The position numbers were made by a program, and so were the translations under genes. Below, one piece after another: positions 2,821-63,394 of a stretch of DNA of 64,000 nt (position 1 is its first letter; each line of letters begins with the position of its first letter). The DNA is taken from positions 2,873 through 66,872 of the forward strand of contig JAGYMU010000003.1 in assembly GCA_018399995.1 (NCBI GenBank). The letters are read 5' to 3'. Below the pieces are notes generated by a model. The model was not told the DNA's origin. It worked only from the letters and a program-made list of their open reading frames with translations, and did not search any database. This stretch comes from Halanaerobiales bacterium (lineage in GTDB: Bacteria; Bacillota; Halanaerobiia; Halanaerobiales; M55B127).

Positions 2821-2848
2821 GCAAGGAGGTGGAAAATAAATAAAAATT

Positions 2849-3033: not shown

Positions 3034-4860
3034 ATGTGTGGAATTGTAGGTTATGTTGGTAATAAAAAGGCAGCATCAATTCTATATAATGGATTGAAGC
3101 GTCTTGAATATAGAGGTTATGATTCATCAGGTATTGCCGTTAATGATGGTTTGCATATAGATGTTGTGAAGAGAAAGGGAAAACTCAAAGACTTAAAAAA
3201 TGAGATAAAAAATGACATGAATGGTGGGACTATAGGAATTGGACACACTAGATGGGCAACTCATGGACAGCCTTCTGATATAAATTCACATCCTCACAGT
3301 AACTGTAAGGACAACTTTGTGATTGTTCATAATGGGATAATTGAGAATTTTAGACAGATCAAAGATCATCTCATCAAAAAGGGCCATCACTTTAAATCAG
3401 AAACCGACACTGAAGTTATTGCACATCTATTGGAAGAAAATAATCAAGGTAATATTTTACAGGCACTGAAAAAAACTGCAGAACAGCTGAAAGGTTCATA
3501 TGCCATGACAATTTTAGCAGCTGATGAACCCAATCGTATTTATGCTGCTAGAAAAGACAGCCCTTTAATCATCGGTCTCGGAGAAAATGAAAATTATATT
3601 GCCTCCGATATACCGGCTTTTTTGGGTGAAACCAGAGACTTTTATATTTTAGAAGATAATGAATTTGCCGTAATTAAAAAAGATAAAGTTGATATTTATA
3701 ACAATAATTTAGAACAGATAGATAAAAAGACACACCGGATAGATTGGGATCCTGAGATGGCTGAAAAACAGGGATATGAACACTATATGTTAAAAGAAAT
3801 TCACGAACAACCGGATGCTGTTCGACGTTTGATGGCACATCGAGTTAGCCAGACTGGGATTAATTTAGAAGAACTAAAATTAGATCAGGATTTTTTAAAA
3901 AGGTTGAACAAAATTCATATTATAGCCTGCGGTACTGCTTATCACTCTGCTTTACTGGGCAAATATATGCTGGAAGATTTAGTTGATCTCAAGGTAGAAA
4001 CAGATGTGGCATCAGAATACAGATATAGAAAGGTTCCCATCGAAAAAGATGATTTAGTCATTGCAGTCAGCCAATCTGGAGAAACCTCAGATACTCTAGC
4101 CAGCTTAAGAATGGCTAAAGAAAAGGGAGCTCAGATTTTAGTTTTCACAAATACCAGGGGCAGCAGTATAGCAAGAGAAGCAGACCATTTAATGTTATTG
4201 AAAGCAGGTCCAGAAATTTCAGTGGCTTCTACAAAAGCTTATCTAAATATGATTGTTGCATTTTATATTTTCAGTATATTTCTTGCTTACCAAAAGGCCA
4301 AAATAAGCCTAGAAGAATATAAAAAATTGTCTACTGATTTAATCAAATTACCTGAGCTTATAGAAGAAATAATTGAAGATAGCGGGGAATTGATAAAAAA
4401 AAGAGCTAAAAAGTATGCAGAGAGTAAAAGTGCTTTCTTTATTGGTCGTCATACCGATTATCCTTTGGCCATGGAGGGAGCTTTAAAGCTGAAGGAAATC
4501 TCATATATTCATTCTGAAGCTTATCCGGCCGGAGAATTAAAACACGGGGCTTTAGCTTTAATAGAAAAAGGAGTACCGGTGGTAGCGGTAGCTGTACGAA
4601 AAGATATATTTGAGAAGACCTTAAGTAATATAACTGAGGTAGAGGCCAGACAGGCTGATGTAACTGTAGTTGTCTGTAAAGGAGCACAAGAAATAGAAGA
4701 TATAGTGGATCATGTTATTTATATACCTGATGTTAATCAGTTATTTGCGGGGGCTCTTGCTATTATTCCTCTGCAGCTTTTAGCTTATTATACAGCCTTG
4801 TTAAAAGACTGTGATATTGATCAACCAAGGAACCTTGCTAAAAGTGTAACAGTTGAGTAA
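3034..4860 (+). CDS. glmS: Glutamine--fructose-6-phosphate aminotransferase
   Basis: MCGIVGY N-terminal nucleophile, two SIS domains (SQSGETSDT), and the conserved C-terminus PRNLAKSVTVE. Confidence 0.97.
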   Translation: MCGIVGYVGNKKAASILYNGLKRLEYRGYDSSGIAVNDGLHIDVVKRKGKLKDLKNEIKNDMNGGTIGIGHTRWATHGQPSDINSHPHSNCKDNFVIVHNGIIENFRQIKDHLIKKGHHFKSETDTEVIAHLLEENNQGNILQALKKTAEQLKGSYAMTILAADEPNRIYAARKDSPLIIGLGENENYIASDIPAFLGETRDFYILEDNEFAVIKKDKVDIYNNNLEQIDKKTHRIDWDPEMAEKQGYEHYMLKEIHEQPDAVRRLMAHRVSQTGINLEELKLDQDFLKRLNKIHIIACGTAYHSALLGKYMLEDLVDLKVETDVASEYRYRKVPIEKDDLVIAVSQSGETSDTLASLRMAKEKGAQILVFTNTRGSSIAREADHLMLLKAGPEISVASTKAYLNMIVAFYIFSIFLAYQKAKISLEEYKKLSTDLIKLPELIEEIIEDSGELIKKRAKKYAESKSAFFIGRHTDYPLAMEGALKLKEISYIHSEAYPAGELKHGALALIEKGVPVVAVAVRKDIFEKTLSNITEVEARQADVTVVVCKGAQEIEDIVDHVIYIPDVNQLFAGALAIIPLQLLAYYTALLKDCDIDQPRNLAKSVTVE

Positions 4861-13749: not shown

Positions 13750-13814
13750 ATAAATACAGGGTGGGAATTTTTTTAGGATTTAATATTAAGAATCAATATA
13801 AAGCAGGTGTAATA

Positions 13815-15125
13815 ATGAGTGAAAAGCATTCTGTATTACTAAAAGAGGATAAATGTGAGGGTTGTACAAATTGTGTTAAGAACTGTCCGACCAAGGCGAT
13901 TAGAATTCATCAGGGGAAAGCCACTATTATAGAAGAGCTATGCATAGATTGTGCGGAATGTATCAGAACCTGTGAATACCATGCGAAATATGCAAAAACT
14001 AATGATCTGAACCAGCTTACAAATGATCAGTACAGAGTTGCTCTACTGGCACCCAGTTTTTATGGTCAATTTGCTGGTGATATCAAACCACAGCAAATCA
14101 AAAAAGCCGTCTATGAACTTGGTTTTAATGAGGTTTGGGATGTTGCATATGCAGCAGAGGCTACTTCTAAAAAAACATATCAATTTCTCAAAAATAATTC
14201 CGGCACTTATATATCGTCTTCCTGTCCGGTGGTGGTAAGACTAATCAGTTTGTTGTATCCGGAATTGATAGATAATATTGTACCTTTTAATTCACCGGTT
14301 GATTTGATGGCTGATTATGTTAAAAAAGGTCTTGAAAAAAAATCAATAGATAATTATTGCATTACATTTTTTACACCCTGTCCTGCTAAAGTAACGGCAG
14401 TAAAAAATCCTCTAGGCAGAAAAGATTCAAGTATAAATAAGACAATTGCTGTAGATAAAGTTTATCCTCAGATACTAAAGTTAATAAAAACAGACGGATT
14501 CTCAGAAAGGAGCGAGCTGCAGCAGAAATATCAACCATATCTGGGTATTTCTTGGGGGCAAAGCGGTGGTGAAAATGATATTTTGAATAGAGAGGGGATT
14601 ATCGATACGCTGTCTGTTTCGGGAATAAGAAATATCATAGATATTTTCAAAGAAATGAGCGTTGGCAACATACAAGGCCTAAGATACTTAGAATTAGTCG
14701 CCTGTCCTACTGGATGTGTTGGTGGTATATTTAATGTGACTAATCCTTATCAGGCTAAAGTTAATATAAAAAATAATCACAGAGATTATGAGAGGTTTGT
14801 TGATCAAAAAACAAATAATTATGATTTTAGATTAAAAAGCAAGATAGAAGAAGAAAATTATCAAAAATTGGATAAAGACTTCACAAAGGCTATGGAAAAA
14901 TTAGAGCTTTTAGAAAGAGAAATTGAAAGCCTACCTGGCCTTGACTGTGCAGCCTGTGGAGCACCAGACTGTGAAACATTTGCAGCAGATGTCATTAATG
15001 GGTTGGCCCAGCGATCTGACTGTATATTTGTACTAAGAGATGAGATTAAAAGATTAGCTGATAAGCTCTCTCTTTTAACACATGAAGAGCCACCGGTTAT
15101 CAATAATCAAAAATCCGGTGATTAA
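13815..15125 (+). CDS. Sensory-type [FeFe]-hydrogenase homologue (2x[4Fe-4S] ferredoxin domain + H-cluster domain + C-terminal Cx2Cx4Cx16C), no PAS
   Basis: CEGCTNCVKNCP and CIDCAECIRTC clusters. H-domain motif variants SSSCPVV (P1), TPCPAK (P2) and VACPTGCVGG (P3). C-terminal CAACGAPDC-x16-C. ATG 13815 follows an AGGTG RBS; the ORF is open from a GTG at 13761. Confidence 0.8.
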   Translation: MSEKHSVLLKEDKCEGCTNCVKNCPTKAIRIHQGKATIIEELCIDCAECIRTCEYHAKYAKTNDLNQLTNDQYRVALLAPSFYGQFAGDIKPQQIKKAVYELGFNEVWDVAYAAEATSKKTYQFLKNNSGTYISSSCPVVVRLISLLYPELIDNIVPFNSPVDLMADYVKKGLEKKSIDNYCITFFTPCPAKVTAVKNPLGRKDSSINKTIAVDKVYPQILKLIKTDGFSERSELQQKYQPYLGISWGQSGGENDILNREGIIDTLSVSGIRNIIDIFKEMSVGNIQGLRYLELVACPTGCVGGIFNVTNPYQAKVNIKNNHRDYERFVDQKTNNYDFRLKSKIEEENYQKLDKDFTKAMEKLELLEREIESLPGLDCAACGAPDCETFAADVINGLAQRSDCIFVLRDEIKRLADKLSLLTHEEPPVINNQKSGD

Positions 15126-15152
15126 CAGATAATAAAATGAGGTGATTAAACA

Positions 15153-15482
15153 GTGAAATTAGAAGAAATTATAAAAAAAACTGATATGGAAATATTGAAT
15201 ATTGCAGATTCAAACGGTCAAGTTAAGGGATGTTATATTGGTGATTTATTGAGTCGGGTAATGGCAGAAGCTCAAAAGGATGAAATATGGATTACTATAC
15301 AGGGTCATCAAAATATCATTGCTGTTTCTCTTTTAGCTGATTTATCTGCTGTTGTTGTAGTTGAAGAAGTTGAGATCGAAGAAGAGGCTATAAAAAAGGC
15401 TGTTCAGAAAGGAGTTACCCTTTTAAGAACTGATAAATCTGCCTATCAACTGGCCAAAGAACTGAGTAAATTAGGGGTTTAA
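15153..15482 (+). CDS. DRTGG-domain protein
   Basis: Small protein with a GDLLSRVM...IWITIQGHQNIIAVS pattern typical of DRTGG domains, as I recall them. GTG start follows a GAGGTGA RBS. Confidence 0.55.
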   Translation: MKLEEIIKKTDMEILNIADSNGQVKGCYIGDLLSRVMAEAQKDEIWITIQGHQNIIAVSLLADLSAVVVVEEVEIEEEAIKKAVQKGVTLLRTDKSAYQLAKELSKLGV

Positions 15483-15483
15483 A

Positions 15484-16224
15484 ATGAAAAAATACCTGGC
15501 TGATTTACATATTCATACGGTGTTATCACCCTGTTCTGATATATTAATGACTCCTGTTAATATTTTAAACAAGGCAGTCCAAAATAATATAGATATTATA
15601 TCGATAACAGATCATAATTCTGCTGCAAATGTAAAGAGCACGTTAAAAATTGCACAAAGATATGATATCATTATAGTTCCTGGAATTGAAGTTCAGAGTA
15701 GTGAGGATATACATTTGCTCAGTTATTTTGATAGTTATAGTAATTTAAAGTCTTATGCCGATATAATTTATAATGCACTACCTGATATAAAAAATGAGGA
15801 AGAGAAGTTGGGGCAGCAAATATTAGTTGATAAAGATGATAAACTTGTAGCAAAAGAAGATAAATTACTGGCTAATTCTACAAAATATACAATAAAAGAA
15901 CTAATAGATCTCACCTATCAAAACAGCGGGATACCGGTTCCAGCTCATATAGATAGAAGTTTTGGTTTGATTAAAATTTTAGGCTTTATACCTGACATTT
16001 TAGATATTTCTTTTGTTGAAGTCAACCGAAATATTGATCCTCAGAAATATTGTTTAAAATTCCCTTATTTAGAAAAATACAACTTTATAAAAAATTCAGA
16101 CAGTCACTTCTTGCATCAAATTAACCCAACTATGCAGATATTAATTGAAAAAGAACCCTCTGTTGATGGTATTTTTAGTTATATAAAAGAGAACAAAATG
16201 GAGGATTATTTAATAAAACCGTAG
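15484..16224 (+). CDS. PHP-domain metal-dependent phosphoesterase
   Basis: ADLHIHTVLSPCSD, ISITDHNS and PAHIDR metal-ligand motifs. The start is 1 nt after the stop of the DRTGG gene. Confidence 0.8.
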   Translation: MKKYLADLHIHTVLSPCSDILMTPVNILNKAVQNNIDIISITDHNSAANVKSTLKIAQRYDIIIVPGIEVQSSEDIHLLSYFDSYSNLKSYADIIYNALPDIKNEEEKLGQQILVDKDDKLVAKEDKLLANSTKYTIKELIDLTYQNSGIPVPAHIDRSFGLIKILGFIPDILDISFVEVNRNIDPQKYCLKFPYLEKYNFIKNSDSHFLHQINPTMQILIEKEPSVDGIFSYIKENKMEDYLIKP

Positions 16225-16240
16225 AAAATTTTTTTATTGT

Positions 16241-16269
16241 TGACAAAGTGAAAAAATTCACGTATAATG
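16241..16269 (+). promoter_or_regulatory. Consensus sigmaA promoter of the hydrogenase operon with an embedded Rex-like palindrome
   Basis: TTGACA (16241-16246), a 17-nt spacer, then TATAAT (16264-16269). The spacer contains the perfect inverted repeat GTGAA-AAAA-TTCAC (16249-16262), matching the core of the Rex operator TTGTGAA-N4-TTCACAA. Confidence 0.6.
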
Positions 16270-16328
16270 TATTTGTAATAATTTTCACATATGTTATAAA
16301 TAACTACTCACGCTAGGAGGTAATATAA

Positions 16329-16817
16329 ATGGTCTGTAATTGTACTTATGAAGAAAGCACAAAATATTTAGAACCACTGCAAGAAATATTAAAGAATTAT
16401 CAAACAATAGAAAAAAATCTTGTCCCCATTTTACAGGATGTACAAGATGAGTATGGATACCTGCCTCGGGATATTTTAAGTGAAATAGCCACTTATTTAG
16501 ATTTATCTTTAAGTCAGGTATTTGGGGTTGTTACATTTTATTCTCAATTTCATTTAAAACCCCGAGGTGAAAATATAATTAGAGTATGTACCGGTACTGC
16601 CTGTCATGTTAGAGGTGGTTCTGAAGTTTTAGAACAGATTCAAGAAGAACTTAATATTAAAAATGGACAAACAACAGACGATCTATCCTTTACCTTAGAG
16701 ACAGTTGCCTGTATCGGAGCCTGTGGTTTAGCCCCTGTAATAATGATCAATGATGAAACATATGGCAGAATGACTGCTGAAAAAGTTTTAGATGTATTAG
16801 GTGAATATATAGAATAA
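16329..16817 (+). CDS. hydC: NuoE-like [2Fe-2S] subunit of NAD(P)-linked [FeFe]-hydrogenase (HydC)
   Basis: CTGTACHVRG ... CIGACGLAPV four-Cys thioredoxin-like 2Fe-2S pattern of NuoE/HydC. Confidence 0.9.
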   Translation: MVCNCTYEESTKYLEPLQEILKNYQTIEKNLVPILQDVQDEYGYLPRDILSEIATYLDLSLSQVFGVVTFYSQFHLKPRGENIIRVCTGTACHVRGGSEVLEQIQEELNIKNGQTTDDLSFTLETVACIGACGLAPVIMINDETYGRMTAEKVLDVLGEYIE

Positions 16818-17368
16818 TGAGGGAATTAGCTTTGCATATTCTGGATGTTGCTGAGAATTCTATTGAAGCAGGGGCTGATAATTTATGGATTAAAGTTGAG
16901 GAATACTGTAAATTAAATCAACTTTATATCACAATTACTGATGATGGACCCGGTATTAATCAAGAAAGCTTAATAAATATTACAGATCCCTTTATAACGA
17001 GCAGAAGTTTAAGACCGGTTGGTTTGGGACTATCCTTATTTAAAGCAGCCGCTGAGAGATGTGAGGGGCATTTAAAAATTAATTCCAGCCAGGAAGGGAC
17101 AAAAGTAAAAGCGGTGTTCAAATATAATCATATAGATAGAGCCCCTCTGGGTAACATTGCACAGACTATAGTATCTATTCTATTAAGGGCTGATAAATTG
17201 GATTTAAATTATCGCCACATCTATGAGCAGGAGTGTTTTGTTTTTGATAGCAAAAAAATTAAAGATGAACTTAAAGGTGTAAGTTTAAAAAATGGAAAAA
17301 TAATAAGCTGGTTAAAAAAATATATAGAGGATAATGTAAAAGCATTACATGGAGGTGGATTTAGTTGA
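16817..17368 (+). CDS. GHKL (HATPase_c) ATPase embedded in the hydrogenase operon
   Basis: LDVAENSIEAGA (N box), DDGPGI (G1), GLGLSL (G2). The start overlaps the hydC stop (TAATG). No His-kinase dimerisation domain. Confidence 0.75.
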   Translation: MRELALHILDVAENSIEAGADNLWIKVEEYCKLNQLYITITDDGPGINQESLINITDPFITSRSLRPVGLGLSLFKAAAERCEGHLKINSSQEGTKVKAVFKYNHIDRAPLGNIAQTIVSILLRADKLDLNYRHIYEQECFVFDSKKIKDELKGVSLKNGKIISWLKKYIEDNVKALHGGGFS

Positions 17369-17730
17369 AATCTTTAGAGGAATTAAGAGAACTTAGAAAA
17401 AAAGTTGAAAAAGAAATAAAAATGCGCAAAGATAACTCTGCCCCTAAAATTATTATTGGAATGGGTACCTGCGGCATAGCTGCTGGTGCAAGAGAGATTC
17501 TCCAGGCTGTAATGGAGGAGATCAATAAAAGGGATTTAGATGTGGAGGTTTCACAAACGGGCTGTATTGGTATGTGTGAAAAAGAGCCCCTTATGGATGT
17601 TAAATTACCAGGAAAAGATAGAATTACTTATGGTAATTTAAAAAAAGAAGATGTTAAGAGAATCATTGTTAATCATATAATAAATACAAATGTTGTTGCA
17701 GAATTGGTTATAGCAAGATTGGAGGAATAA
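17365..17730 (+). CDS. Thioredoxin-like [2Fe-2S] ferredoxin subunit (HydD-like)
   Basis: GMGTCGIAAGA ... TGCIGMCEKEP Cys pattern. TTG start overlaps the preceding gene. Confidence 0.8.
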   Translation: MKSLEELRELRKKVEKEIKMRKDNSAPKIIIGMGTCGIAAGAREILQAVMEEINKRDLDVEVSQTGCIGMCEKEPLMDVKLPGKDRITYGNLKKEDVKRIIVNHIINTNVVAELVIARLEE

Positions 17731-17749
17731 ATAAAGGAGGTTTGATACA

Positions 17750-19552
17750 GTGAAAGAGAAAATCTATAGATCACATGTGTTAATTTGTACTGGTACCGGC
17801 TGTGTTTCCTCCGGTTCTAAAAATATAAAACATGAGTTACAGGATGAACTCGCAGATAATAATTTATTAGATGAAATAAAAATTGTTGAAACCGGCTGCC
17901 ATGGGTTTTGTGAAAAAGGCCCTATAATGATTGTTTATCCGGAGGGAGTATTTTACTGTCAGCTTAAAAAAGAAGATGTCCAAGAGATAGTACAAGAACA
18001 TCTATTAAAGGGAAGAATCGTTGATAGATTACTTTTTAAAGAGCCTCTTACCGAAGAAAGCATTCCCTCATATAAAGATATTGACTTTTATAAAAAACAG
18101 CACAGGATTGCTCTGGCTAATTGTGGGAAGATCGACCCGGAAAGTATAGAAGAATACATTGCAAATAATGGTTATGAGGCGGCTGGTAAGGCTTTAACTG
18201 AAATGACACCTGCAGAAATTATTGAAGAAGTTAAAAGCTCAGGTCTGCGGGGTAGAGGTGGCGGAGGTTTTCCGACAGGCTTGAAATGGGAATTCGCTTA
18301 TAAGCAGGATAGTGATAAAAAGTATGTAATCTGTAATGCTGATGAAGGAGATCCGGGTGCATTCATGGATCGCAGTATTTTAGAAGGTGATCCTCACAAA
18401 ATAATTGAAGGTATGATAATTTGTGGATATGCGATCGGTGCAGACGAGGGATATGTTTATGTAAGAGCTGAATATCCGCTTGCTATCAAACGCCTGCAAA
18501 AAGCAATAAGCAATGCAGAAGAACTGGGTTTACTGGGAGACAATATATTTAGTTCCGGTTTTAATTTTAAATTAAATATTAAAAAGGGAGCAGGTGCTTT
18601 TGTCTGTGGAGAAGAAACTGCTTTAATGGCTTCAATAGAGGGGAAAAGGGGTATGCCAAATCCCAGACCTCCTTATCCAGCTGAAAAGGGATTATGGGGA
18701 AAACCTACCAATATAAATAATGTAGAAAGTTATGCTAATATTCCTCATATTATAGCAAAAGGAGCAGAAAAATTTTCTTCAATAGGTACTGAAAACAGCA
18801 AGGGGACTAAGGTATTTGCTTTAACAGGTAAGATTAAAAACACAGGTTTAGTGGAGGTTCCAATGGGAACAACACTCAGAGAAGTAGTTTTTGATATTGG
18901 AGGAGGATTAACTGAAGGTAAAAAATTTAAGGCTATCCAAACCGGTGGTCCTTCTGGTGGTTGTATACCATCTAATTATTTGGATTTACCCATTGACTAT
19001 GATTCTTTATTAGAGGTGGGGGCGATGATGGGTTCAGGGGGTATGGTTGTTATGGATGATAGCACCTGTATGGTAGATGTGGCACGCTTCTTTTTATCCT
19101 TTACCCAGAGTGAATCTTGTGGTAAATGCACACCCTGTCGAGAAGGAACAAAGAGGATGCTTGAAATTTTAAACAGGATTTGTCAGGGTGAAGGTGAACA
19201 AGGAGATATTTTGCTTTTAGAGGAATTTGGACACCACATAAAAGAAACAGCCCTTTGCGGATTGGGCCAAAGTGCCCCCAATCCAGTTTTAAGTACGATC
19301 AAGTATTTTAAAAAAGAGTATGAATCTCATATATATGATAAGAGATGTCCGGCTGGTGTTTGTAGTGAACTGTCTGCTGCCTTTGTAATTAATAAAGAAG
19401 AATGTGTAGGATGTGGACAATGTGTTAAGGTCTGTCCAGTAGATGCAGTAATTAGAGATAAAGAAGAAAATTACTCAATTGATGATAATTTATGTATTTC
19501 TTGTGGGGCCTGTGCCCAAAAATGTCCTGTTGATGCTATAAAACAGGGTTGA
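17750..19552 (+). CDS. hydB: NuoF-like flavoprotein subunit (HydB): N-terminal 2Fe-2S, FMN/NADH site, N3-type 4Fe-4S, C-terminal 2x[4Fe-4S]
   Basis: GLRGRGGGGFPTGLKW, NADEGDPGAF, ESCGKCTPCREG, and C-terminal CVGCGQCVKVCP / CISCGACAQKCP. Confidence 0.93.
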   Translation: MKEKIYRSHVLICTGTGCVSSGSKNIKHELQDELADNNLLDEIKIVETGCHGFCEKGPIMIVYPEGVFYCQLKKEDVQEIVQEHLLKGRIVDRLLFKEPLTEESIPSYKDIDFYKKQHRIALANCGKIDPESIEEYIANNGYEAAGKALTEMTPAEIIEEVKSSGLRGRGGGGFPTGLKWEFAYKQDSDKKYVICNADEGDPGAFMDRSILEGDPHKIIEGMIICGYAIGADEGYVYVRAEYPLAIKRLQKAISNAEELGLLGDNIFSSGFNFKLNIKKGAGAFVCGEETALMASIEGKRGMPNPRPPYPAEKGLWGKPTNINNVESYANIPHIIAKGAEKFSSIGTENSKGTKVFALTGKIKNTGLVEVPMGTTLREVVFDIGGGLTEGKKFKAIQTGGPSGGCIPSNYLDLPIDYDSLLEVGAMMGSGGMVVMDDSTCMVDVARFFLSFTQSESCGKCTPCREGTKRMLEILNRICQGEGEQGDILLLEEFGHHIKETALCGLGQSAPNPVLSTIKYFKKEYESHIYDKRCPAGVCSELSAAFVINKEECVGCGQCVKVCPVDAVIRDKEENYSIDDNLCISCGACAQKCPVDAIKQG

Positions 19553-19578
19553 TTTAATCATAAAGGAGGTTAAATAAA

Positions 19579-21300
19579 ATGGACAAAATTAATCTAACTA
19601 TAGATAATAAAGATATAAAAGTTCCCCCGGGTACAACCTTACTAAAGGCGGCTGAAAAAGCTGGTATAGATGTACCTTCACTTTGTTACCATCCTGATTT
19701 AACAATACATGGAGCCTGTAGAGTGTGTGTTATTGAGAACCTAAAAGACAATTCTTTATTGGCCTCTTGTGTAACACCTGTTCAAAATGGTATGGAGTTA
19801 AGTACTCGCAGTATGAAGGCCCGAAAGGCGAGAAGGAGAAATGTAAAACTTTTACTAGCCAACCATCCTAACGATTGTCTGGGATGTGATAGAAATGGGA
19901 GTTGTGAACTGCAGGATATTACACACAACCTCGGTATTTGCAGAGAAGACATTGAAGAAATTCAGGGTGAAGTTCGCAAGGTGCCGCGTGATCAGGTTGG
20001 TCCTGCCTTGAAAAGAGATCCAAATAAATGTATTTTATGTGGGCGTTGTGTTCGGGTTTGTGAAGAGGTTCAAGGGGTTTCAGCTTTACAGTTCAGTAAT
20101 AGGGGTTTTGATTCGATTGTGACAACTGCCTTTGATTTGCCTCAGAGTGAGATAAATTGTGCAAACTGTGGTCAGTGTGCTACGGTATGTCCAGTAGGAG
20201 CGATTACTGAGGTTAGTGAAATTAAAAATGTATGGGAGGCCTTAGAAGATGATAATCTACATGTGGTCTGTCAAACAGCACCTTCTATACAGGCAACTAT
20301 CGGTGAAGAATTTGGATATAAAGCCGGTACGGTCGTAACGGGAAAACTAATTGCAGCTCTGGATAAATTGGGTTTTGACCGTGTATTTTCAACAGAATTT
20401 ACAGCAGATTTAACAATTATGGAAGAGGGAGCAGAGTTTCTTCAGCGTATAACTAAAAATGAGAATTTACCTCATATTACTTCCTGTTGTCCTGGTTGGG
20501 TAAAGTATGCTGAACACAACTATCCTGAGTTATTAAACCATCTATCAAGCGCTAAGTCTCCCCAACAGATGTTTTCTGCTTTATCTAAAACTTACTATGC
20601 TGAGAAAGAAGGCCTTGATCCAGAAAAAATCTATACGGTTTCCATTATGCCCTGTACTGCCAAGAAGTTTGAAAAGGAAAGAGAAGAAATAAATGCATCC
20701 CAATCTAAAGATACAGATGCAGTATTAACGACAAGAGAACTAGCCAGAATGATCAAAGAAGTTGGTATTAAATTTGAAATGTTAGAAGACAAGGAATATG
20801 ATATATTAATGGGTAAACACACGGGTGCCGGCACGATATTTGGAACAACAGGGGGGGTGGCTGAAGCTGCCGTAAGAACTGTTAAAGAAAAACTAACAGG
20901 TGAGCCATTAAACAGATTAGATCTTGGTTTTAAAGGAATAAATAAAGCTGAAGTTGTGATAAATGATAAAATTATAAGAGTTGCTATAGTAAATGGTTTA
21001 AAAAATGCAGAAAAGATCTTAAAAGAAGTGAAAAAAGGTCAATCTAACTATGATTTTGTAGAAATAATGGCCTGTCCACATGGTTGTGTGGGAGGAGGAG
21101 GACAACCCCTCCCGGTTGATGAAAAAACTAAAGAGCTACGTGGGAATAGTCTCTCCCATACAGACCGACAGAGTGTAGTAAGGAGATCACATAAGAATCC
21201 AATGATTGAAAAATTATATTCTGAATATCTCAAAGAACCTAATGGCAGCAAATCTCATCAATTGCTCCATACATCTTATAAAAAGAGAGCTAAGAATTAA
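19579..21300 (+). CDS. hydA: Catalytic [FeFe]-hydrogenase HydA (M3-type with 2Fe-2S and three accessory 4Fe-4S clusters)
   Basis: Canonical H-cluster motifs TSCCPGW, MPCTAKKFE and MACPHGCVGGGGQP. The N-terminus carries plant-type 2Fe-2S and ferredoxin-like Cys clusters. Confidence 0.95.
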   Translation: MDKINLTIDNKDIKVPPGTTLLKAAEKAGIDVPSLCYHPDLTIHGACRVCVIENLKDNSLLASCVTPVQNGMELSTRSMKARKARRRNVKLLLANHPNDCLGCDRNGSCELQDITHNLGICREDIEEIQGEVRKVPRDQVGPALKRDPNKCILCGRCVRVCEEVQGVSALQFSNRGFDSIVTTAFDLPQSEINCANCGQCATVCPVGAITEVSEIKNVWEALEDDNLHVVCQTAPSIQATIGEEFGYKAGTVVTGKLIAALDKLGFDRVFSTEFTADLTIMEEGAEFLQRITKNENLPHITSCCPGWVKYAEHNYPELLNHLSSAKSPQQMFSALSKTYYAEKEGLDPEKIYTVSIMPCTAKKFEKEREEINASQSKDTDAVLTTRELARMIKEVGIKFEMLEDKEYDILMGKHTGAGTIFGTTGGVAEAAVRTVKEKLTGEPLNRLDLGFKGINKAEVVINDKIIRVAIVNGLKNAEKILKEVKKGQSNYDFVEIMACPHGCVGGGGQPLPVDEKTKELRGNSLSHTDRQSVVRRSHKNPMIEKLYSEYLKEPNGSKSHQLLHTSYKKRAKN

Positions 21301-34480: not shown

Positions 34481-35380
34481 ATGAAAATAAATAGCTTAAG
34501 AACTTTTGTCCAGTTGATTGACACTGGTAGTTATTCAATTGCAGCTGATAGAATAGGTTTAACTCAACCTGCTGTTAGTATGCAGATTAAAAAGTTAGAA
34601 GACAATTTTGCTACAGATTTAATAATAAAAGAAGAGGGTGCTTTGATTTTAACGCCAGCCGGTAAAGCTGTTTATGATTATAGCAAAGACATTTTAGACA
34701 AGTGGGAGAAATTAGTTTTCGAAGTTGAAAATAAAAAGAATAAACATTATAAAAATATCATTATAGGAGCAAGTACTATACCTTCAGAATATATATTGCC
34801 TGATATATTGGCTGAATTATCTAAAAATAGGCCGGAGATAAAATCTTCAATTGAAGTTGGAGACAGTGCGGAGATGATCGAATTATTAGAAAAAAAGGAA
34901 GTTGATTTGATATTAGTGGGTTATAAGCCAACGTCCTCTAAATTTGAAATTATAGAAGTAGTAGAAGATAAAGTAAAGTTAATTATACCTTTAGAACATT
35001 CCTTAGCAGAAAGGGATGTAGTTAAGTTAATTAACCTCAAAGAAGAAGATATTGTAATTAGAGAAACTGGTTCGGGTACCAGAAAAGCGATGTTGAGTGT
35101 TTTTAAAAGAGCTAATTTAAATATAAATGACTTAAATATAAAATGCAAATTGGGTAGTACAGAAGCAGTAATATCAGCAGTACAGGCGGGATTAGGCATC
35201 TCTTTTGTTTCTAAATTTGCTTCTTCTAAGGCTCAAAAATGTGGTAGAATAAGAGAAATAAGTGTAGAAGATGTGAATTTAACACGTAAATTTTATCTGG
35301 CATATAATAAAAATAAAAAAGATGACGAATTAATTAAAAAACTTATTAGTATATGTAAAAAAATGGTTAATTTAGTTTAG
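34481..35380 (+). CDS. LysR-family transcriptional regulator
   Basis: N-terminal wHTH (FVQLIDTGSYSIAADRIGLTQPAVSMQIKKLE) plus a LysR substrate-binding domain. Confidence 0.9.
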   Translation: MKINSLRTFVQLIDTGSYSIAADRIGLTQPAVSMQIKKLEDNFATDLIIKEEGALILTPAGKAVYDYSKDILDKWEKLVFEVENKKNKHYKNIIIGASTIPSEYILPDILAELSKNRPEIKSSIEVGDSAEMIELLEKKEVDLILVGYKPTSSKFEIIEVVEDKVKLIIPLEHSLAERDVVKLINLKEEDIVIRETGSGTRKAMLSVFKRANLNINDLNIKCKLGSTEAVISAVQAGLGISFVSKFASSKAQKCGRIREISVEDVNLTRKFYLAYNKNKKDDELIKKLISICKKMVNLV

Positions 35381-35702: not shown

Positions 35703-35852
35703 ATGTGTATAAAATGTGGAAATTGTGTAGAAGAATGTCCAAATTTTTCTCTTCATTTAGGAGAAAAAAGTACAGAGGTAGATTATTCAAAATGTGTTTA
35801 ATGCGTATACTGTAACAGGGTATGTTCTGAATTAGCGATTAGAATTGTTTAA
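35703..35852 (+). pseudogene. Small 2x[4Fe-4S] ferredoxin interrupted by an in-frame TAA
   Basis: The translation reads MCIKCGNCVEECP...SKCV*CVYCNRVCSE. The stop (35799-35801) sits at an x position of the second CxxCxxCxxxC motif. Confidence 0.6.
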
Positions 35853-35931
35853 ATATTGATTGAACCAATCCTTTATTACCAAAGAAGACATCTATTTAAT
35901 TTATAAAATATATTTTAAGCGAGGGAATTTA

Positions 35932-37158
35932 ATGAATATAGCAGGAATTATTATTGGATTCATGTTAATTTTAATACTTAACTATAGGGATGTAAACTTA
36001 GGTCTTTCCATAATTTTGGGAGCTATAATAGGTGGTTTACTAAGTGGGATTGATTTATTACGCCTACCTCAAATCTTATTTTTTACATTAAGGGAATATA
36101 CTACAATAAGATTAGCGTTAATGATGATATTAATTAGTGGATTGGGTTATATATTGGAACAAAATGATGATTTGAATATTATGGTTAATTCTTTTTTAAA
36201 AATTTTCAGTAGTAGCAAACCATTAATTGTTTTATTTCCATCACTTATTGCAACCTTATCTGTACCGGGAGGAGCTATACTTTCTGCTCCTATGGTTGAT
36301 AAGAGTGGAGATGCGATTGAATTATCTTATGCAAATAAGACCGCTTCCAATCTCTTTTATCGACATATATTTTTTTTAGTATATCCTTTATATCCTTCTT
36401 TAATAGTAGCAGCTGATTTATTTGATGTACATGAATTATCTCTCATTAAATATAATATCTTTATAACCTTAGTTGGATTAGTTGTTGCTTATTTTATATT
36501 TTTTTATGACAATGATAGCAAAGTATCGGCCGAAAAAAACGAAGTTAATATTGAATATTTTCAGGAGATTAAACAGATCTTATTAAGTCTTAGTCCGATC
36601 ATAATTGTATTAGTTTTATCTTTAATCTTTAATGTAGAATTTGTTATCTCACTTTTTATAGCTACTATTTGGGGCTTCTTTAGATATTTATATAAACAGA
36701 GAAGAGATTATAAAATAATATACAACTACTTTACCAATGGTATTAATTATAATTTAGTAGCGGTGATAATTGGTGTTATGATTTTTAAAAATATTGTCGA
36801 AGTAAGTGGATTTTCATCTATAATTGCAAACATGCTTAATCAAATAGGGCTTCCTTTAATTATGATAATTCCTGTCTTGGGTCTGGTTGTTAGTTTCTTT
36901 CTTGGTTCTAATATAGCAGCTTTGGGAATACTAGCACCTATATTCATCCCCTTATTTCCCGCAGGCAATTTGGCTCCATATTTGTCATTTTTATTTATTT
37001 CAACGTATATTGGCTATAATTTATCACCAATACATTTATGTCTGGTATTAACAAAAGAATATTTTGATATAGGTTATTTTGAAACCTATAGTAAACTAGT
37101 TATGCCTTTTGCAGCTATGTTATTTGCTGCAATTTTTCAATTTATATATTTGAGTTGA
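35932..37158 (+). CDS. Polytopic membrane protein, transporter-like (DUF401-like)
   Basis: About 10-12 hydrophobic helices. ATG 35932 follows a GAGGGA RBS. The family assignment is tentative. Confidence 0.55.
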   Translation: MNIAGIIIGFMLILILNYRDVNLGLSIILGAIIGGLLSGIDLLRLPQILFFTLREYTTIRLALMMILISGLGYILEQNDDLNIMVNSFLKIFSSSKPLIVLFPSLIATLSVPGGAILSAPMVDKSGDAIELSYANKTASNLFYRHIFFLVYPLYPSLIVAADLFDVHELSLIKYNIFITLVGLVVAYFIFFYDNDSKVSAEKNEVNIEYFQEIKQILLSLSPIIIVLVLSLIFNVEFVISLFIATIWGFFRYLYKQRRDYKIIYNYFTNGINYNLVAVIIGVMIFKNIVEVSGFSSIIANMLNQIGLPLIMIIPVLGLVVSFFLGSNIAALGILAPIFIPLFPAGNLAPYLSFLFISTYIGYNLSPIHLCLVLTKEYFDIGYFETYSKLVMPFAAMLFAAIFQFIYLS

Positions 37159-37176: not shown

Positions 37177-37269
37177 GATTCACTAGGATTTCTTTGCTCT
37201 AAACGGGTAAGTTATCTAGATGGTGTTTCAATTGTATTGGATGGCGGTGGCAGTCATTCCAACTTATAA
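37177..37269 (+). pseudogene. C-terminal remnant of a short-chain dehydrogenase/reductase gene
   Basis: The frame reads DSLGFLCSKRVSYLDGVSIVLDGGGSHSNL*, resembling the SDR C-terminal FL.S..ASYITG..L.VDGG signature. No N-terminal part is present. Confidence 0.5.
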
Positions 37270-37448
37270 TACAGGTTATTATTTATTTTATATTCGGGTA
37301 AATAATAAATTTATAAGATTTTAACTAATGATTTTGTATATCAATAAAGAGGATATCTAAAAGAAATATCCAATATTTATTATAGAAGGGATGATTTAAA
37401 TAGCAGAAGTTTTCACTATTTATTTTAAAAATGAAAGGAAGTGTCAAG

Positions 37449-37892
37449 ATGATCAGAGTAGGAGATAGGCTGCCTGACTTTTGTTTAAAAGACCAAAGTG
37501 GAAATGAATATAATCGTGCAGATTTTTCAGATCAAAGATTGGTGTTGTTCTTTTATATTAAAGATAATACACCTGGCTGAAAAAAGGAAGCAGTTGCTTT
37601 TCAAAAGCAGCTAAAAACCCTGGAGGGGTTAGAGACAAAAATTGTAGGTGTAAGTAAAGATGGGGTAGAGTCTCATAGAAAATTTGCAGAAGAATATGAC
37701 TTGACCTATCCTTTATTGGCTGATGTTGATAAAAAGTTAGCAGAAAAATTTGGCGTTCTTAACTTTATGGGAATATTTAAAAGAACGACATTCGTAATTT
37801 CTAAAGAACAAAATGTGATAAAGATATTTGATAAAGTAAAAGTAGCCGGTCACGCTGAGAAAGTAGTGGAGTATATTGAGAGTTTAGATTAA
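37449..37892 (+). CDS. bcp: Bcp-type peroxiredoxin with in-frame TGA at the peroxidatic Cys position (candidate selenocysteine; alternatively a pseudogene)
   Basis: Reading from ATG 37449 gives MIRVGDRLPDFCLKDQSG...LVLFFYIKDNTPG[TGA 37578-37580]KKEAVAFQ...VGVSKDGVESHRKFAEEYDLTYPLLADVDKK..., continuous with ORF 37701..37892 in the same frame. The Bcp consensus is FYPKDxTPGCTxEA. Confidence 0.7.
37592..37612 (+). other. Candidate bacterial SECIS hairpin
   Basis: AGUUGCUU-uucaa-AAGCAGCU (8 bp including one G.U) starts 11 nt after the UGA. An alternative small hairpin GGAAGC-aguu-GCUUUU lies at 37586-37601. Confidence 0.35.
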
Positions 37893-37911
37893 GAATAAAG
37901 CATTAAAAAAG

Positions 37912-37947
37912 AGTGATCTTGAAAGATAATCAGAGATCACTTTTTTT
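37912..37947. terminator. Bidirectional rho-independent terminator between the peroxiredoxin gene and tRNA-Pro
   Basis: An A-run, then AGTGATCT, a 14-nt loop, AGATCACT, then TTTTTTT. Confidence 0.8.
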
Positions 37948-38065
37948 GTTATTTTTTAATTTTAATTACTATAATCAAGAAAAATTATGCTGGTTGGTTT
38001 TTCTTTCCACGACATGCAAACAGGTGTAATTTATGTTATAATTATTAGGCATCATAAAATAAAAA

Positions 38066-38142
38066 TGGTCTGGCTACCCGGATTTGAACCGGGGACCTCT
38101 TGCTCCCGAAGCAAGCGCGCTACCAAGCTGCGCTATAGCCAG
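38066..38142 (-). tRNA. tRNA-Pro (anticodon CGG)
   Basis: The reverse complement folds as a cloverleaf: acceptor CUGGCUA/UAGCCAG, D arm GCGC/GCGC, anticodon arm CUUGC-UUCGGGA-GCAAG, T arm CCCGG-UUCAAAU-CCGGG. It has C1-G72, A73 and an encoded CCA. Confidence 0.93.
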
Positions 38143-59956: not shown

Positions 59957-62608
59957 TTGTTTTTCACTAAAATAAATTTTAGCAAAGGGGCGATTAGTAT
60001 TAATAACTTAGTTACAACTATAAAAGATTCCTGTCATGAGTGTTATGCTTGTGTAAGGAACTGTCCCGTAAAAGCCCTACAGGTTAAGGATGGCCAGGCA
60101 GAGGTGATTGATCACCGCTGTATTAATTGTACTAATTGTGTAACTATATGTTCACAAGGTGCTAAAGAAGTAAAAAACTATAAAGAGCACATAAGCTCCT
60201 TATTAAAAACAGGAAAAGAAAATATTGTTATTGGTTTGGCTCCCAGCTTTCCTGCTTTCGACACAGATTTGAGCTTAAAAGATTGGCAGAACATATTACT
60301 GCAGGCAGGTTTTAAAGAGGTTTATGAGGTTGCCTGGGGAGCTCAATTAATAATTGATGAATATAAGAAATACTTAAAAGAAAGTGATGAACCTGTTATA
60401 AGCAGCGCCTGTCCGGTTGTTGTTAATTATATTAGGAAATATTATTCTGAGTTAGTAAAATATTTAGCACCGTTTGTTTCACCAATGGGTGCCCTTGTTA
60501 GATATTTAGAAGAAATATTGGATTCTGAAGAGAAAATTGTTCTGGTTGGCCCCTGTCATGCAAAAAAATCAGAATTTTCCGAAAGCAGTATGGTTGAGGG
60601 AGTTTTGACATTTACAGAGTTTTTTGAAATGTTAAATGAAGATTTCAATATTAATTTTTCAAAAAAGAATAGCAGTATTGAAAATGACGTTAATCCAGCC
60701 TCAATAATAACGGATTATTCCCGCCAGATTCCTATAGCAGGAGGCCTAAAAGACGCATTAGTAGAAAATACAGATGATCAATATATTAAGGTTGAAGACA
60801 GTAAAAAATTATGCGCGCTTTTTGATATGATGTCAGAAGGGGAAATAAGACCTGATTTTGTTGATGCACTATTTTGCGATGGCTGTATAAACGGTGTGGA
60901 TTTAACTGAAAAGAGTCATTTTAAAAAGGAAATAGCCGTTAATCAATTTATCAACAAGAGAGAAAGGACTGAGCAATTAAAATATAAGGCTGAGTTGGCT
61001 TCAGATATAGACTATAGCTTTCTGTACACTGAAGACTATCAAAAACTAGAAGAACCAAGTCAAGCAGAAATTTGGAAAATTCTTGCAAAGACTAATAAAT
61101 ACTGTGAAGATGATTTATTAAACTGTGGGGCATGTGGCTATGATTCATGTGAAGAAAAAGCAGTTGCTGTTTATCAAGGTATAGCAGAAGTTGAAATGTG
61201 TTTACCTTTTTTACTTGATGAAAGAAGAAATGAAGTAGAAGATATTAAAAACTTAAATCTGGAACTTGATAGTATTATTAATTCTTCCTATGATGGAATG
61301 TTATTAGTTGATAATAAGTTAAGTGTTGAAAAAGTAAATGATGCTTATTTAGATATGATTGACCTCACAGAAGAAGAGTTGCTTAATTTAGACCTTTATG
61401 AATTAGAGGAAGAAAAAATTATTTATCCCTCGGCAGCTTTGTTAGCTTTTAAGGAAAAAAGGGATATTACTATTGTACAAAATACAGATAATAAAAAACT
61501 ACTAACTACTGCTACTCCAGTCTTATCTGACGATAATGAAATTATCAGAGTTATTGTTAACGCCAGGGATATAAATGAACTAGATGTGAGTGTAGACACA
61601 AATTTATCAGGTCATGAGAAAGTAAAATTATCAATTAAAGATGGTGACAATAAGCATAATAAGATGTCTCATATTGTCTGTAAATCAGATAAAATGAAAC
61701 GGATATTAAATATTGCTGAAAAAATCGGTGATACAAATTCTACAGTTTTAATTACGGGTGATTCAGGAGTTGGTAAAGAAGTAATAGCTAGATATATTCA
61801 CAAATTAGATAATAAAAGAGAAGAACTTGTAAAGATTAATTGTGGCGCAATACCAGAGAGGTTACTAGAATCGGAGTTATTCGGTTATGAAACCGGTGCA
61901 TTTAGTGGGGCAAGAAGAGAAGGCAAACCCGGCTTAATTGAAAAAGCTAATAATGGTACTTTGTTTTTAGATGAAATTGGAGAGATGCCTGTCAATATGC
62001 AGGTAAAATTACTTCAAGTTATTCAGGAACATCGTCTGACAAGAATTGGTGGAGTTGAGGCAATTGAAGTTAATTTTAGATTGATAGCAGCTACAAATAG
62101 AAATTTAAAGAAAAGCGTAGAGGCGGGAGAATTTAGAGAGGATCTCTTTTATAGGTTGAATGTGATACCAATAAACATACCACCTTTGTCTGAAAGGCCG
62201 CAGGACATAATACCTTTATTTGAATATTATATAGATAAATTTAATGAAAAATATAATAAAAAAGCTCATTTTGACCCCGGGGTTAAGGATATTTTAATAA
62301 AATACGATTGGCCGGGCAATGTGAGGGAAATGATTAACTTAATTGAGAGATTGGTAGTGACCAGTGAAAAATCACAGATTATTACTGTAAAGAATGTTGA
62401 AGAGTTTCTTAATACCAAAAAAAATGAGGGGGAGGACAGTAATATAGTAGTTAAGGATATTGTTCCTTTAAGAGAAGCGGTTGATTTAGTTGAAAAAGAA
62501 CTGCTCAAGTTGGCTAAAGGCAAGAATAAGACTACTTATGAGATTGCTGATATACTGGGTGTTAATCAATCCACTGTAGTAAGAAAGTTAAAAAAGTACT
62601 TTGATTGA
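59957..62608 (+). CDS. Fusion protein: 2x[4Fe-4S] + sensory-type [FeFe]-hydrogenase H-domain + Cx2Cx4Cx16C + PAS + sigma54 AAA+ activator + HTH
   Basis: CHECYACVRNCP / CINCTNCVTIC. H-domain motif variants SSACPVV, GPCHAKK, FCDGCINGV. CGACGYDSC-x16-C. PAS-like segment ~aa 430-545. GDSGVGKE, ESELFGYETGAFSGA, FLDEIGE, RLIAATN. C-terminal HTH (TTYEIADILGVNQSTVVRKLKKY). The exact start codon is uncertain (TTG 59957 is the first in-frame start). Confidence 0.85.
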   Translation: MFFTKINFSKGAISINNLVTTIKDSCHECYACVRNCPVKALQVKDGQAEVIDHRCINCTNCVTICSQGAKEVKNYKEHISSLLKTGKENIVIGLAPSFPAFDTDLSLKDWQNILLQAGFKEVYEVAWGAQLIIDEYKKYLKESDEPVISSACPVVVNYIRKYYSELVKYLAPFVSPMGALVRYLEEILDSEEKIVLVGPCHAKKSEFSESSMVEGVLTFTEFFEMLNEDFNINFSKKNSSIENDVNPASIITDYSRQIPIAGGLKDALVENTDDQYIKVEDSKKLCALFDMMSEGEIRPDFVDALFCDGCINGVDLTEKSHFKKEIAVNQFINKRERTEQLKYKAELASDIDYSFLYTEDYQKLEEPSQAEIWKILAKTNKYCEDDLLNCGACGYDSCEEKAVAVYQGIAEVEMCLPFLLDERRNEVEDIKNLNLELDSIINSSYDGMLLVDNKLSVEKVNDAYLDMIDLTEEELLNLDLYELEEEKIIYPSAALLAFKEKRDITIVQNTDNKKLLTTATPVLSDDNEIIRVIVNARDINELDVSVDTNLSGHEKVKLSIKDGDNKHNKMSHIVCKSDKMKRILNIAEKIGDTNSTVLITGDSGVGKEVIARYIHKLDNKREELVKINCGAIPERLLESELFGYETGAFSGARREGKPGLIEKANNGTLFLDEIGEMPVNMQVKLLQVIQEHRLTRIGGVEAIEVNFRLIAATNRNLKKSVEAGEFREDLFYRLNVIPINIPPLSERPQDIIPLFEYYIDKFNEKYNKKAHFDPGVKDILIKYDWPGNVREMINLIERLVVTSEKSQIITVKNVEEFLNTKKNEGEDSNIVVKDIVPLREAVDLVEKELLKLAKGKNKTTYEIADILGVNQSTVVRKLKKYFD

Positions 62609-62983: not shown

Positions 62984-63394
62984 ATGAATAGTGATAAGTT
63001 TTTAGACAGGGCTCATGATATTCAGGACACTTATGGTTATATTCCAGAAGGTGAAATAGACAAAATGGCCAAAGAATTTGATGTACCGAGAGCGAAGGTA
63101 TATGGCAGCATCCGTTTTTATTCGATGTTTTATACGGAACCGACGGGTAAGTATATCATTAGGGTATGTGACAGTCTTTCCTGTCACATTAATGATTCAA
63201 AATCTATTGTGGAAAGTATAAAAAATTATTTAGGCATTGATGATGGAGAAACTACAAAAAACAAAAAATTTACACTTGAAGTGGTAGAATGTCTAGGACA
63301 CTGTGGAGAAGGTCCGGTTATGATGGTAAATGATGAAATGTATACTCATGTTAGTGAAAATATGGCCTTAGATATTATCAAAGATTGCACATAA
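62984..63394 (+). CDS. NuoE-like [2Fe-2S] subunit (second copy)
   Basis: CDSLSCHIN ... CLGHCGEGPV four-Cys pattern. Paralogous to 16329..16817. AAGGAGG RBS. Confidence 0.9.
   Translation: MNSDKFLDRAHDIQDTYGYIPEGEIDKMAKEFDVPRAKVYGSIRFYSMFYTEPTGKYIIRVCDSLSCHINDSKSIVESIKNYLGIDDGETTKNKKFTLEVVECLGHCGEGPVMMVNDEMYTHVSENMALDIIKDCT

Follow-up and report, generated by a model that had tools for sequence, protein, structure and literature searches.

The locus described here lies in a 64,000-nucleotide (nt) stretch of a Halanaerobiales bacterium genome (contig JAGYMU010000003.1), which as a whole is referred to below as the window. It contains a gene, prx, that encodes a predicted peroxiredoxin and has a TGA at the codon for its catalytic residue. 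The frame opens with an ATG at position 37449 on the plus strand and comprises 147 codons up to the TAA at 37890-37892, with a TGA at 37578-37580 as its single internal stop; this TGA is codon 44 and stands between the peptides FFYIKDNTPG and KKEAVAF. Such a full-length Bcp-type frame, interrupted exactly at the catalytic Cys codon, had been proposed in an initial annotation of this DNA, and all of its coordinates hold. The mechanical list of open reading frames (ORFs) holds only two pieces of the gene, 37431-37580 (49 amino acids [aa], terminating at the codon-44 TGA) and 37701-37892 (63 aa, with a TTG start), the latter being the C-terminal fragment that the annotation had already singled out. 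We place the start at 37449 and not at the upstream ATG at 37431, because 18 orthologous upstream regions have a purine-rich GAAAGGAAG/GGAGG block equally far from the start codon. On the comparisons described below, we consider it highly probable that prx is an intact and functional selenoprotein gene, with selenocysteine (Sec) predicted at codon 44 as the peroxidatic residue.

We looked for orthologues in a genome scan, with one genome taken per species, and in an additional metagenome scan. In the genomes, prx was found in 12 Halanaerobiales species at 55 to 92% identity, and codon 44 was TGA in 12/12. Two Synergistota genomes (L018 and L021) have TGA at the same codon, and the 19 other genome relatives, all at ≤49% identity, have TGT or TGC at the codon for the peroxidatic Cys (Cp). 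The metagenomes yielded 14 further TGA loci and 19 Cys loci (again TGT or TGC). TGA is also present in the ENA and JGI contigs L001 to L005 and in the more distant forms L082 (51% identity), L083/L084, and L085. All recovered orthologues of the Halanaerobiales clade, which span 51 to 93% amino acid identity, carry TGA at codon 44, and neither scan returned a Cys-codon orthologue closer than ~49% identity. Because the same codon is TGA in every orthologue examined, its recurrence far exceeds chance. Among the homologues as a whole, Sec and Cys alternate at the Cp codon, the UGA being aligned with the conserved redox Cys. The TGA forms of L085, L018, and L021 are independent-looking in these comparisons, and within BCP/PrxQ the origin or spread of Sec at Cp appears to have occurred on several occasions. 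L083 (264-806) and L084 encode a Sec-type PrxQ (VVLYFYIKDDTPG-TGA-TKQACGF) whose N terminus resembles a lipoprotein signal (LSAGCGG), and the L085 gene (2809-3255), a TGA form of the same Prx branch, adjoins 2-hydroxyacyl-CoA dehydratase genes.

The frame beyond the TGA is preserved. The prx orthologues contain no frameshift and no second stop, and the median ratio of nonsynonymous to synonymous substitution rates (dN/dS), computed over 19 distinct coding sequences, was 0.13 for codons 1 to 43 and 0.10 for codons 62 to 146. The region past the TGA is therefore constrained at least as much as the region before it, and by this measure codons 62 to 146, the 85 codons that lie beyond the segment containing the candidate selenocysteine insertion sequence (SECIS), are under strong purifying selection. 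Frameshifts or fast change past the TGA, which the initial annotation had named as signs of a pseudogene, were thus not found; its proposal of a missed selenoprotein is supported by the conserved TGA, by the purifying selection downstream of it, and by the Cys present in other relatives.

Public gene calls obscure this conservation. A protein search returned 18 full-length orthologues at 68 to 92% identity, all recorded with W at the catalytic column, together with six fragments of 80 to 95 aa that start downstream of that column. The DNA behind the recorded W is TGA. The W-form records are all located on contigs of ≤8 kb, and long contigs carry code-11 fragments in which prx is split into calls of 43 and 93 aa; the JGI label for one prx fragment is "peroxiredoxin Q/BCP." The most likely source of the active-site W in the stored orthologues is gene calling in which TGA was translated as Trp (code 4). 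Across public protein collections (P0001-P0024, P0052, and P0201-P0203), prx is stored either with a Trp active site or as fragments of 43 aa and 80 to 95 aa. In the window itself, TGA terminates 13/43 long ORFs, and PcrA (721 aa) and LigA (669 aa, ending at a TGA) have the same lengths as the code-11 calls of L001, on which grounds we conclude that the standard genetic code is in use, with no reassignment.

We then analyzed the sequence of the predicted protein. Computed with Cys substituted at codon 44, the match to the AhpC-TSA domain (PF00578) has an E value of 3e-36 and a score of 124.3 bits against a Pfam gathering cut-off of 26, and it covers profile positions 1 to 122 of 124. In NCBIfam, the models PrxQ and Bcp rank first, both scoring under their equivalog cut-offs (114 versus 260 and 107 versus 140, respectively). 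Among solved structures, 11 of the top 12 matches are BCP/PrxQ-type peroxiredoxins and the remaining one is a BCP-NADH dehydrogenase fusion; codon 44 aligns with the peroxidatic Cys of the solved BCP structures. The sequence T41-P-G-U44 matches the T-x-x-C(U) motif and aligns with the TPGC of homologues, and R112 is invariant in an alignment of 28 sequences. From these matches, the protein is assigned to the BCP/PrxQ branch. The initial annotation had cited PrxU as an example of a Sec-containing peroxiredoxin, and this kinship does not extend to the window protein, which scores 36.8 bits against a cut-off of 270 with the PrxU model NF040737 and is thus not a PrxU relative.

The resolving Cys (Cr), expected at Cp+5 in the atypical 2-Cys type, is absent from the window protein, which has Val49 at this position. 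At Cp+5, L085 and the remaining Sec forms of the Halanaerobiales and Synergistota have Val, Lys, or Asn, and the nearest Cys homologues have a Cys there (C-x-x-x-x-C). Most of the BCP/PrxQ Sec forms that we found have lost the resolving Cys, which among Sec forms is kept only in the lipoprotein-like L083 form. Cys12 is not conserved, being replaced by Tyr or Ser in some orthologues. 1-Cys-type variants occur within the BCP/PrxQ subfamily, and the window enzyme is predicted to be such a variant, i.e., a 1-Sec peroxiredoxin.

The segment that follows the UGA is unusually conserved at silent positions. In 13 orthologous coding sequences (CDSs), synonymous diversity was 0.11 to 0.17 in codons 45 to 52 and 0.12 to 0.20 in codons 57 to 61, versus ~0.35 to 0.55 in most of the gene. 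Likewise, the synonymous substitution rate was 0.48 in codons 45 to 61 and 1.1 to 1.5 in the flanks (19 distinct coding sequences). We take these patterns to indicate that the 54 nt following the UGA are constrained at the RNA level. All Halanaerobiales sequences form two hairpins in the post-UGA segment, termed here hairpins 1 and 2, which jointly fold with -15.4 kcal/mol. Hairpin 1, which the initial annotation had noticed 11 nt past the UGA, was confirmed by folding: alone it has an energy of -9.0 kcal/mol (z = -4.3), and 0/200 dinucleotide shuffles fold as well. In many orthologues the stem has 10 bp (37591-37613). In columns numbered from the U of the UGA, hairpin 1 occupies 14/15 to 35/36, where 88% of the cells are paired (16 sequences); in five sequences pair 21-29 is C-G instead of U-A, through a synonymous change (GCU/GCC) on one side and a Lys/Arg change on the other, and there are several further G-C/G-U and U-G/U-A switches. 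In L017 (55% identity) and L082 (51%), a hairpin of unrelated sequence, GUCUC-(C/A)UUUA-GAGAC, stands at the hairpin-1 site; that of L017 folds with -14.6 kcal/mol (z = -4.6).

Hairpin 2 occupies columns 39 to 53, with 99% of the cells paired, and its loop columns U44, G45, G46, and A47 do not vary among 17 distinct sequences. In L082, two pairs of its stem have changed in a compensatory way (A-U to G-C and C-G to U-A), the loop and the distance from the UGA being unchanged. The hairpin is spelled with the minor codons ACC, CUG, GAG, and GGG, which account for 19, 11, 24, and 12% of usage in this 33% GC genome and which are nevertheless fixed in nearly all orthologues. Over the two hairpins, 92% of the cells pair in register, compared with 27 to 59% when the 3' partners are slid by one to three columns. 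Both hairpins are thus backed by conservation and by compensatory changes. With mononucleotide shuffles as the reference, the 57-nt stretch of the window has a z score of -3.5, and the 57 nt from the Cp codon have a median z score of -3.3 in 20 Sec forms versus +0.08 in 32 Cys forms (Mann-Whitney p = 7e-8, uncorrected for relatedness). No copy of the hairpin 2 core CCCTGGAGGGG was found outside prx in the window or in the Halanaerobiales loci when up to one mismatch was allowed.

According to a 2026 review, the consensus bacterial SECIS (bSECIS) has a loop of 3 to 9 nt whose opening two positions include a G, usually as G-[G|U], a stem of 4 to 16 bp, a UGA-to-loop distance of 16 to 37 nt, and a minimum free energy of ≤-7.5 kcal/mol; the same review states that a subset of bacterial elements departs from this consensus. 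The element of prx resembles the consensus bacterial SECIS, as modeled by bSECISearch and exemplified by E. coli fdhF, in lying within the CDS and 3' of the UGA, in having a stem-loop from +11 nt, and in carrying a small apical G-G loop, here on one of two hairpins. It differs in that the consensus is one extended stem-loop, whereas the window has two separate hairpins with the G loop at 40 to 41 nt. Hairpin 1 fits in spacing (its loop is 20 nt past the UGA), stem, and energy, and hairpin 2 fits in its stem and has a loop, U-G-G-A-G/A, that fits N1-G-[G|U]-N-N2 exactly, including the U-G to U-A change of the closing pair. The initial annotation had noted the missing loop G; this is correct for hairpin 1 but not for the element overall, since hairpin 2, which had gone unnoticed, carries a G-G loop. 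Outside the Halanaerobiales, the Synergistota forms L018 and L021 each have one extended stem-loop, the loop being GGC or CGUGC and located 27 to 28 nt from the UGA, and L083 has a hairpin whose GUU loop stands 17 nt past the UGA, so that in these three forms a G-containing apical loop lies inside the consensus spacing.

Several observations weigh against reading prx as a Sec-decoded gene. None of selA, selB, selD, and the tRNA-Sec gene was found in the 64-kb window, which was searched with ARAGORN and Rfam and, for ~50 ORFs, with NCBIfam and Pfam, or in the fetched loci, where ARAGORN detected no tRNA-Sec at 16 orthologous loci; tblastn with approximate E. coli SelA, SelB, and SelD queries gave 0 matches in the window and loci L001-L081. 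These negatives cover the window and the fetched loci only and are uninformative on the remaining genome. On the RNA side, neither hairpin alone satisfies the published bSECIS model: the loop of hairpin 1 has no G, and the loop of hairpin 2 begins 40 to 41 nt past the UGA, beyond the 16- to 37-nt range, in a structure of only -6.4 kcal/mol when folded alone. The compensatory changes in hairpin 2 come from one divergent lineage only, L082, and the fold of a 63-nt stretch is unremarkable against dinucleotide shuffles (z = -1.6). An Rfam search of 37540-37680 at a permissive threshold gave chance-level matches only and no SECIS family. On the protein side, the Pro at Cp-7 in the PxxxTxxC motif is replaced by Ile37. 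Ile is also found at Cp-7 in the Halanaerobiales loci L006-L017 and L039-L052, with Val in L021, and L082 and L085, both Sec forms, still have Pro; the Cys-type relative P0026 also has Ile at this position, which is why we regard this residue as compatible with the peroxiredoxin family. As for the Sec machinery, support comes at the order level only, from literature on Halanaerobium praevalens, in which Secmarker identified two tRNA-Sec candidates and five predicted selenoprotein genes (strain DSM 2228). The conservation of a catalytic UGA under purifying selection in >12 species is in itself a strong indirect sign that these organisms decode it.

What else could explain the in-frame TGA? The initial annotation had raised the caveat of a recent pseudogene, in which a Cys-type bcp in a decaying neighborhood had suffered a TGY-to-TGA nonsense mutation. 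Such a change needs a single base from TGC or TGT, two neighboring loci are truly decayed, and public gene calls do break prx into fragments. However, a recent lesion would not be fixed in all orthologues between 51 and 93% identity with the downstream frame intact and a dN/dS of ~0.10, with no Cys-codon orthologue found closer than ~49% identity, and these orthologues are not copies of one sequence, since the 19 distinct CDSs come from different assemblies. The decay of the neighbors only adds weight to the intactness of prx, and the conservation data in practice refute the caveat, leaving a pseudogene extremely unlikely. We give practically no credence to a gene split in two, with a 43-residue N-terminal peptide and a C-terminal fragment that is initiated on its own: gene callers do place start codons downstream (in the window at TTG 37701, elsewhere in the orthologues), but the called "starts" vary from orthologue to orthologue and lack a conserved ribosome-binding site, the stretch from the UGA to the start, which is the best-conserved part of the protein, would stay untranslated, and the fragments would have no catalytic residue. 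Decoding of the UGA as an amino acid other than Sec, either by a Trp or Gly code (4 or 25) or by near-cognate read-through with Trp or Cys, would agree with the 18 database orthologues recorded with W at the codon-44 position and with the Sec machinery having gone unseen in the DNA examined. It is nonetheless very unlikely: TGA stops long ORFs in the window and the L001 orthologues have the same length under code 11, the W forms are confined to short contigs and likely stem from code-4 gene calls, a peroxidatic Trp would mean a dead enzyme although prx is under purifying selection, and the hallmark of SelB-dependent decoding is conserved RNA structure immediately 3' of the UGA, as seen in prx.

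If prx is a selenoprotein gene, the question becomes which hairpin SelB contacts. Hairpin 1 alone might serve as the SECIS, with hairpin 2 having another role such as ribosome pausing or mRNA stability. The start of hairpin 1 at +11 nt, its loop at +20 nt, and its energy would all suit this role, and the Sec form L085 has a hairpin 1-like structure, GGUCUC-AUUUA-GAGACC, at the hairpin-1 place and no obvious hairpin 2. Yet the loop of hairpin 1 is devoid of G and varies between lineages (UCA, CUUUA, and AUUUA), whereas the U-GGA loop of hairpin 2 and its distance from the UGA are invariant in 17 sequences and fit the consensus G-[G|U], so that we consider hairpin 1 as the only SECIS unlikely, if conceivable. 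We slightly favor hairpin 2 as the candidate SelB contact site, because the site of a conserved protein should be the invariant part of the element and because its loop matches the consensus. More tentatively, the Halanaerobiales may use a distinct bipartite SECIS, in which a SelB hairpin with a U-GGA loop would lie ~40 nt from the UGA, farther than current predictors look, beyond an intervening hairpin that acts as a folded spacer; we regard this as possible, with the balance somewhat on the other side.

For prx as a selenoprotein gene, we propose the following mechanism. SelB-GTP with Sec-tRNA(Sec) would be recruited by the RNA element in the 54 nt past the UGA and would deliver Sec once the UGA occupies the ribosomal A site. 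Hairpin 1, whose sequence and loop vary while its pairing is kept, would then be at the mRNA entrance of the ribosome and could serve as a folded spacer by which hairpin 2, the proposed SelB contact, comes within reach. In the finished enzyme, the U44 selenolate, activated by T41 and R112, would attack the hydroperoxide to give a selenenic acid, which, in the manner of 1-Cys-type enzymes, would be recycled by a thiol from outside the protein, for instance thioredoxin. We infer this external recycling from the lack of a resolving Cys at Cp+5; thioredoxin is the obvious candidate reductant for the BCP/PrxQ subfamily.

Peroxiredoxins with a TxxU motif are an established prokaryotic selenoprotein family for which several independent Cys-to-Sec conversions have been reported. 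The window protein shares with this family the AhpC/TSA domain, Sec at the peroxidatic position in T-x-x-U, occurrence in anaerobes, and the Sec/Cys alternation, and it differs in the replacement by Ile of the Pro of PxxxTxxU. Surveys treat the Prx selenoproteins as one family, and the literature that we found names no BCP/PrxQ-type or Halanaerobiales member; literature searches on Halanaerobiales or BCP with selenocysteine likewise found nothing specific. PrxU of Eubacterium acidaminophilum, an experimentally verified Sec-peroxiredoxin, is similar in its peroxidatic Sec and as a thioredoxin-dependent peroxiredoxin of an anaerobic Firmicute, but it belongs to another Prx subfamily, with a model length of 233 versus the 147 aa of the window protein. 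The best matches are Cys-type BCP/PrxQ proteins (PDB entries 3DRN, 3IXR, 5ENU, and 3GKK; NF053650 and NF006960), with E values of 1e-22 to 1e-19 over nearly the full length; their Cp, Thr, and Arg align with the window protein, which has Sec in place of the Cp Cys and Val49 in place of the resolving Cys. Thus, prx is an addition to a known kind of Sec-peroxiredoxin, in the BCP/PrxQ branch and in a clade for which we found no description. Only the tandem-hairpin SECIS might go beyond the known kind.

The finding does not overturn current understanding. Correctly annotated, prx would give an entire clade of anaerobes from hypersaline habitats an additional antioxidant selenoenzyme. It would also be one more independent case, this time from BCP/PrxQ, of an anaerobe's peroxiredoxin whose peroxidatic residue is Sec. 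Sec forms that lack Cr, one that has it (L083), and the Cys homologues form a series provided by nature in which the benefit of Sec to a peroxiredoxin could be examined. Neither hairpin of the tandem element passes the standard bSECIS filter, which bears on selenoproteome prediction: if a bipartite SECIS is indeed in use, then SECIS-based predictors would systematically miss selenoproteins of the Halanaerobiales, and SelB could be positioned via a folded spacer as well as by a continuous stem. The annotation artifact, with Trp or fragments in place of the Sec protein, is systematic and could serve as a search handle for other missed selenoproteins.

The coordinates of prx, of its candidate RNA elements, and of other features of the window are collected in Table 1. 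A consensus terminator scan listed nothing 3' of prx; direct folding gave the hairpin and U7 tract that may be its terminator, the scan having presumably missed it for its stem bulge and few G-C pairs.

Table 1. Features of prx and of other parts of the window (positions within the window)
Feature	Coordinates	Strand	Basis or remark
Ribosome-binding site GAAAGGAAG	37433..37441	+	7 nt 5' of ATG; read from sequence
Full CDS, predicted 147-residue Sec-containing BCP/PrxQ-type peroxiredoxin, stop TAA 37890-37892	37449..37892	+	Translation, PF00578, structure matches, collinear orthologues, dN/dS
UGA codon 44, predicted Sec at peroxidatic position (T41-P-G-U44)	37578..37580	+	Alignment with TPGC Cp Cys of homologues and solved BCP structures
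Candidate SECIS hairpin 1, AGUUGCUUU-UCA-AAAGCAGCU	37592..37612	+	9-bp stem, loop UCA, begins 11 nt after UGA
Candidate SECIS hairpin 2, AACCCU-GGA-GGGGUU	37616..37630	+	Invariant U-GGA loop 37621-37624; 3 nt past hairpin 1
Terminator-like hairpin then U7 tract (putative terminator)	37906..37950	+	14 nt 3' of stop codon; -16.4 kcal/mol, z = -4.8
LysR-family regulator	34481-35380		Upstream of prx
Ferredoxin-like ORF	~35703-35852		In-frame TAA at 35799
DUF401 gene	35860-37158		On the 5' side of prx
SDR-gene remnant	37189-37266		26 codons
tRNA-Pro(CGG)	38066-38142	-	Directly 3' of prx
glmS ribozyme	2840-2997		Rfam RF00234, 101.8 bits
glmS	3034-4860		Immediately 3' of the ribozyme
HydABC-type [FeFe] hydrogenase cluster	13761-21300		Group A6, NADH dependent
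Second hydrogenase-like protein	13761-15125		In hydrogenase cluster
PHP-family phosphoesterase-like ORF	15484-16224		In hydrogenase cluster
Histidine-kinase-like ATPase	16817-17368		In hydrogenase cluster
[FeFe]-hydrogenase-like fusion protein	59957-62608		883 aa
NuoE-like 2Fe-2S protein	62984-63394		~380 nt downstream of the fusion

Two decayed loci near prx had been mentioned in the initial annotation, and both exist; they are probably the ferredoxin-like ORF and the SDR remnant. The ferredoxin-like ORF, with motifs for 2x[4Fe-4S] (CIKCGNCVEECP and, further on, CV-stop-CVYCNRVC), was considered as a second UGA gene and rejected, its in-frame stop being TAA; it is a pseudogene or a sequencing error. 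The SDR remnant is 77% identical to the C terminus of the SDR gene that stands directly 5' of prx in L001, L008, L010, L042, and L043. In the window this side is taken by the DUF401 gene, from which it follows that the SDR gene was lost or displaced. Other plus-strand frames bridged by a TGA were discarded, that at 12046 consisting of adjacent asparaginase and amidohydrolase genes and that at 57730 being an antisense artifact; the minus-strand TGA-bridged frames lie antisense to plus-strand genes.

The LysR-family gene is found upstream of prx both in the window and in L001, despite the differing intervening gene, and its product could be a peroxide-responsive regulator of prx. On the other side, the tRNA-Pro(CGG) gene is located directly 3' of prx on the opposite strand in 12/16 orthologous loci scanned, and beyond it the genes for a DUF123 protein, pcrA, ligA, and gatCAB follow in the window and in L001, in tightly conserved synteny.

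Overall, the window is an ordinary chromosomal stretch, with cdaA, glmM, a glmS ribozyme immediately 5' of glmS, genes for a HydABC-type hydrogenase, tsaEBD, groEL, guaA, pcrA, ligA, gatCAB, and opp genes. The NADH-dependent hydrogenase cluster includes NuoE- and NuoF-like subunits, and its further members, the second hydrogenase-like protein, the phosphoesterase-like ORF, and the histidine-kinase-like ATPase, suggest that a sensory or regulatory module lies next to the catalytic one. A second hydrogenase-related locus encodes the 883-aa fusion of [FeFe]-hydrogenase-like catalytic, Fe-S, PAS, sigma-54 activator AAA+, and HTH parts and, downstream, the NuoE-like protein; the fusion resembles a sensor of the hydrogenase type that is coupled directly with a sigma-54 enhancer-binding protein.

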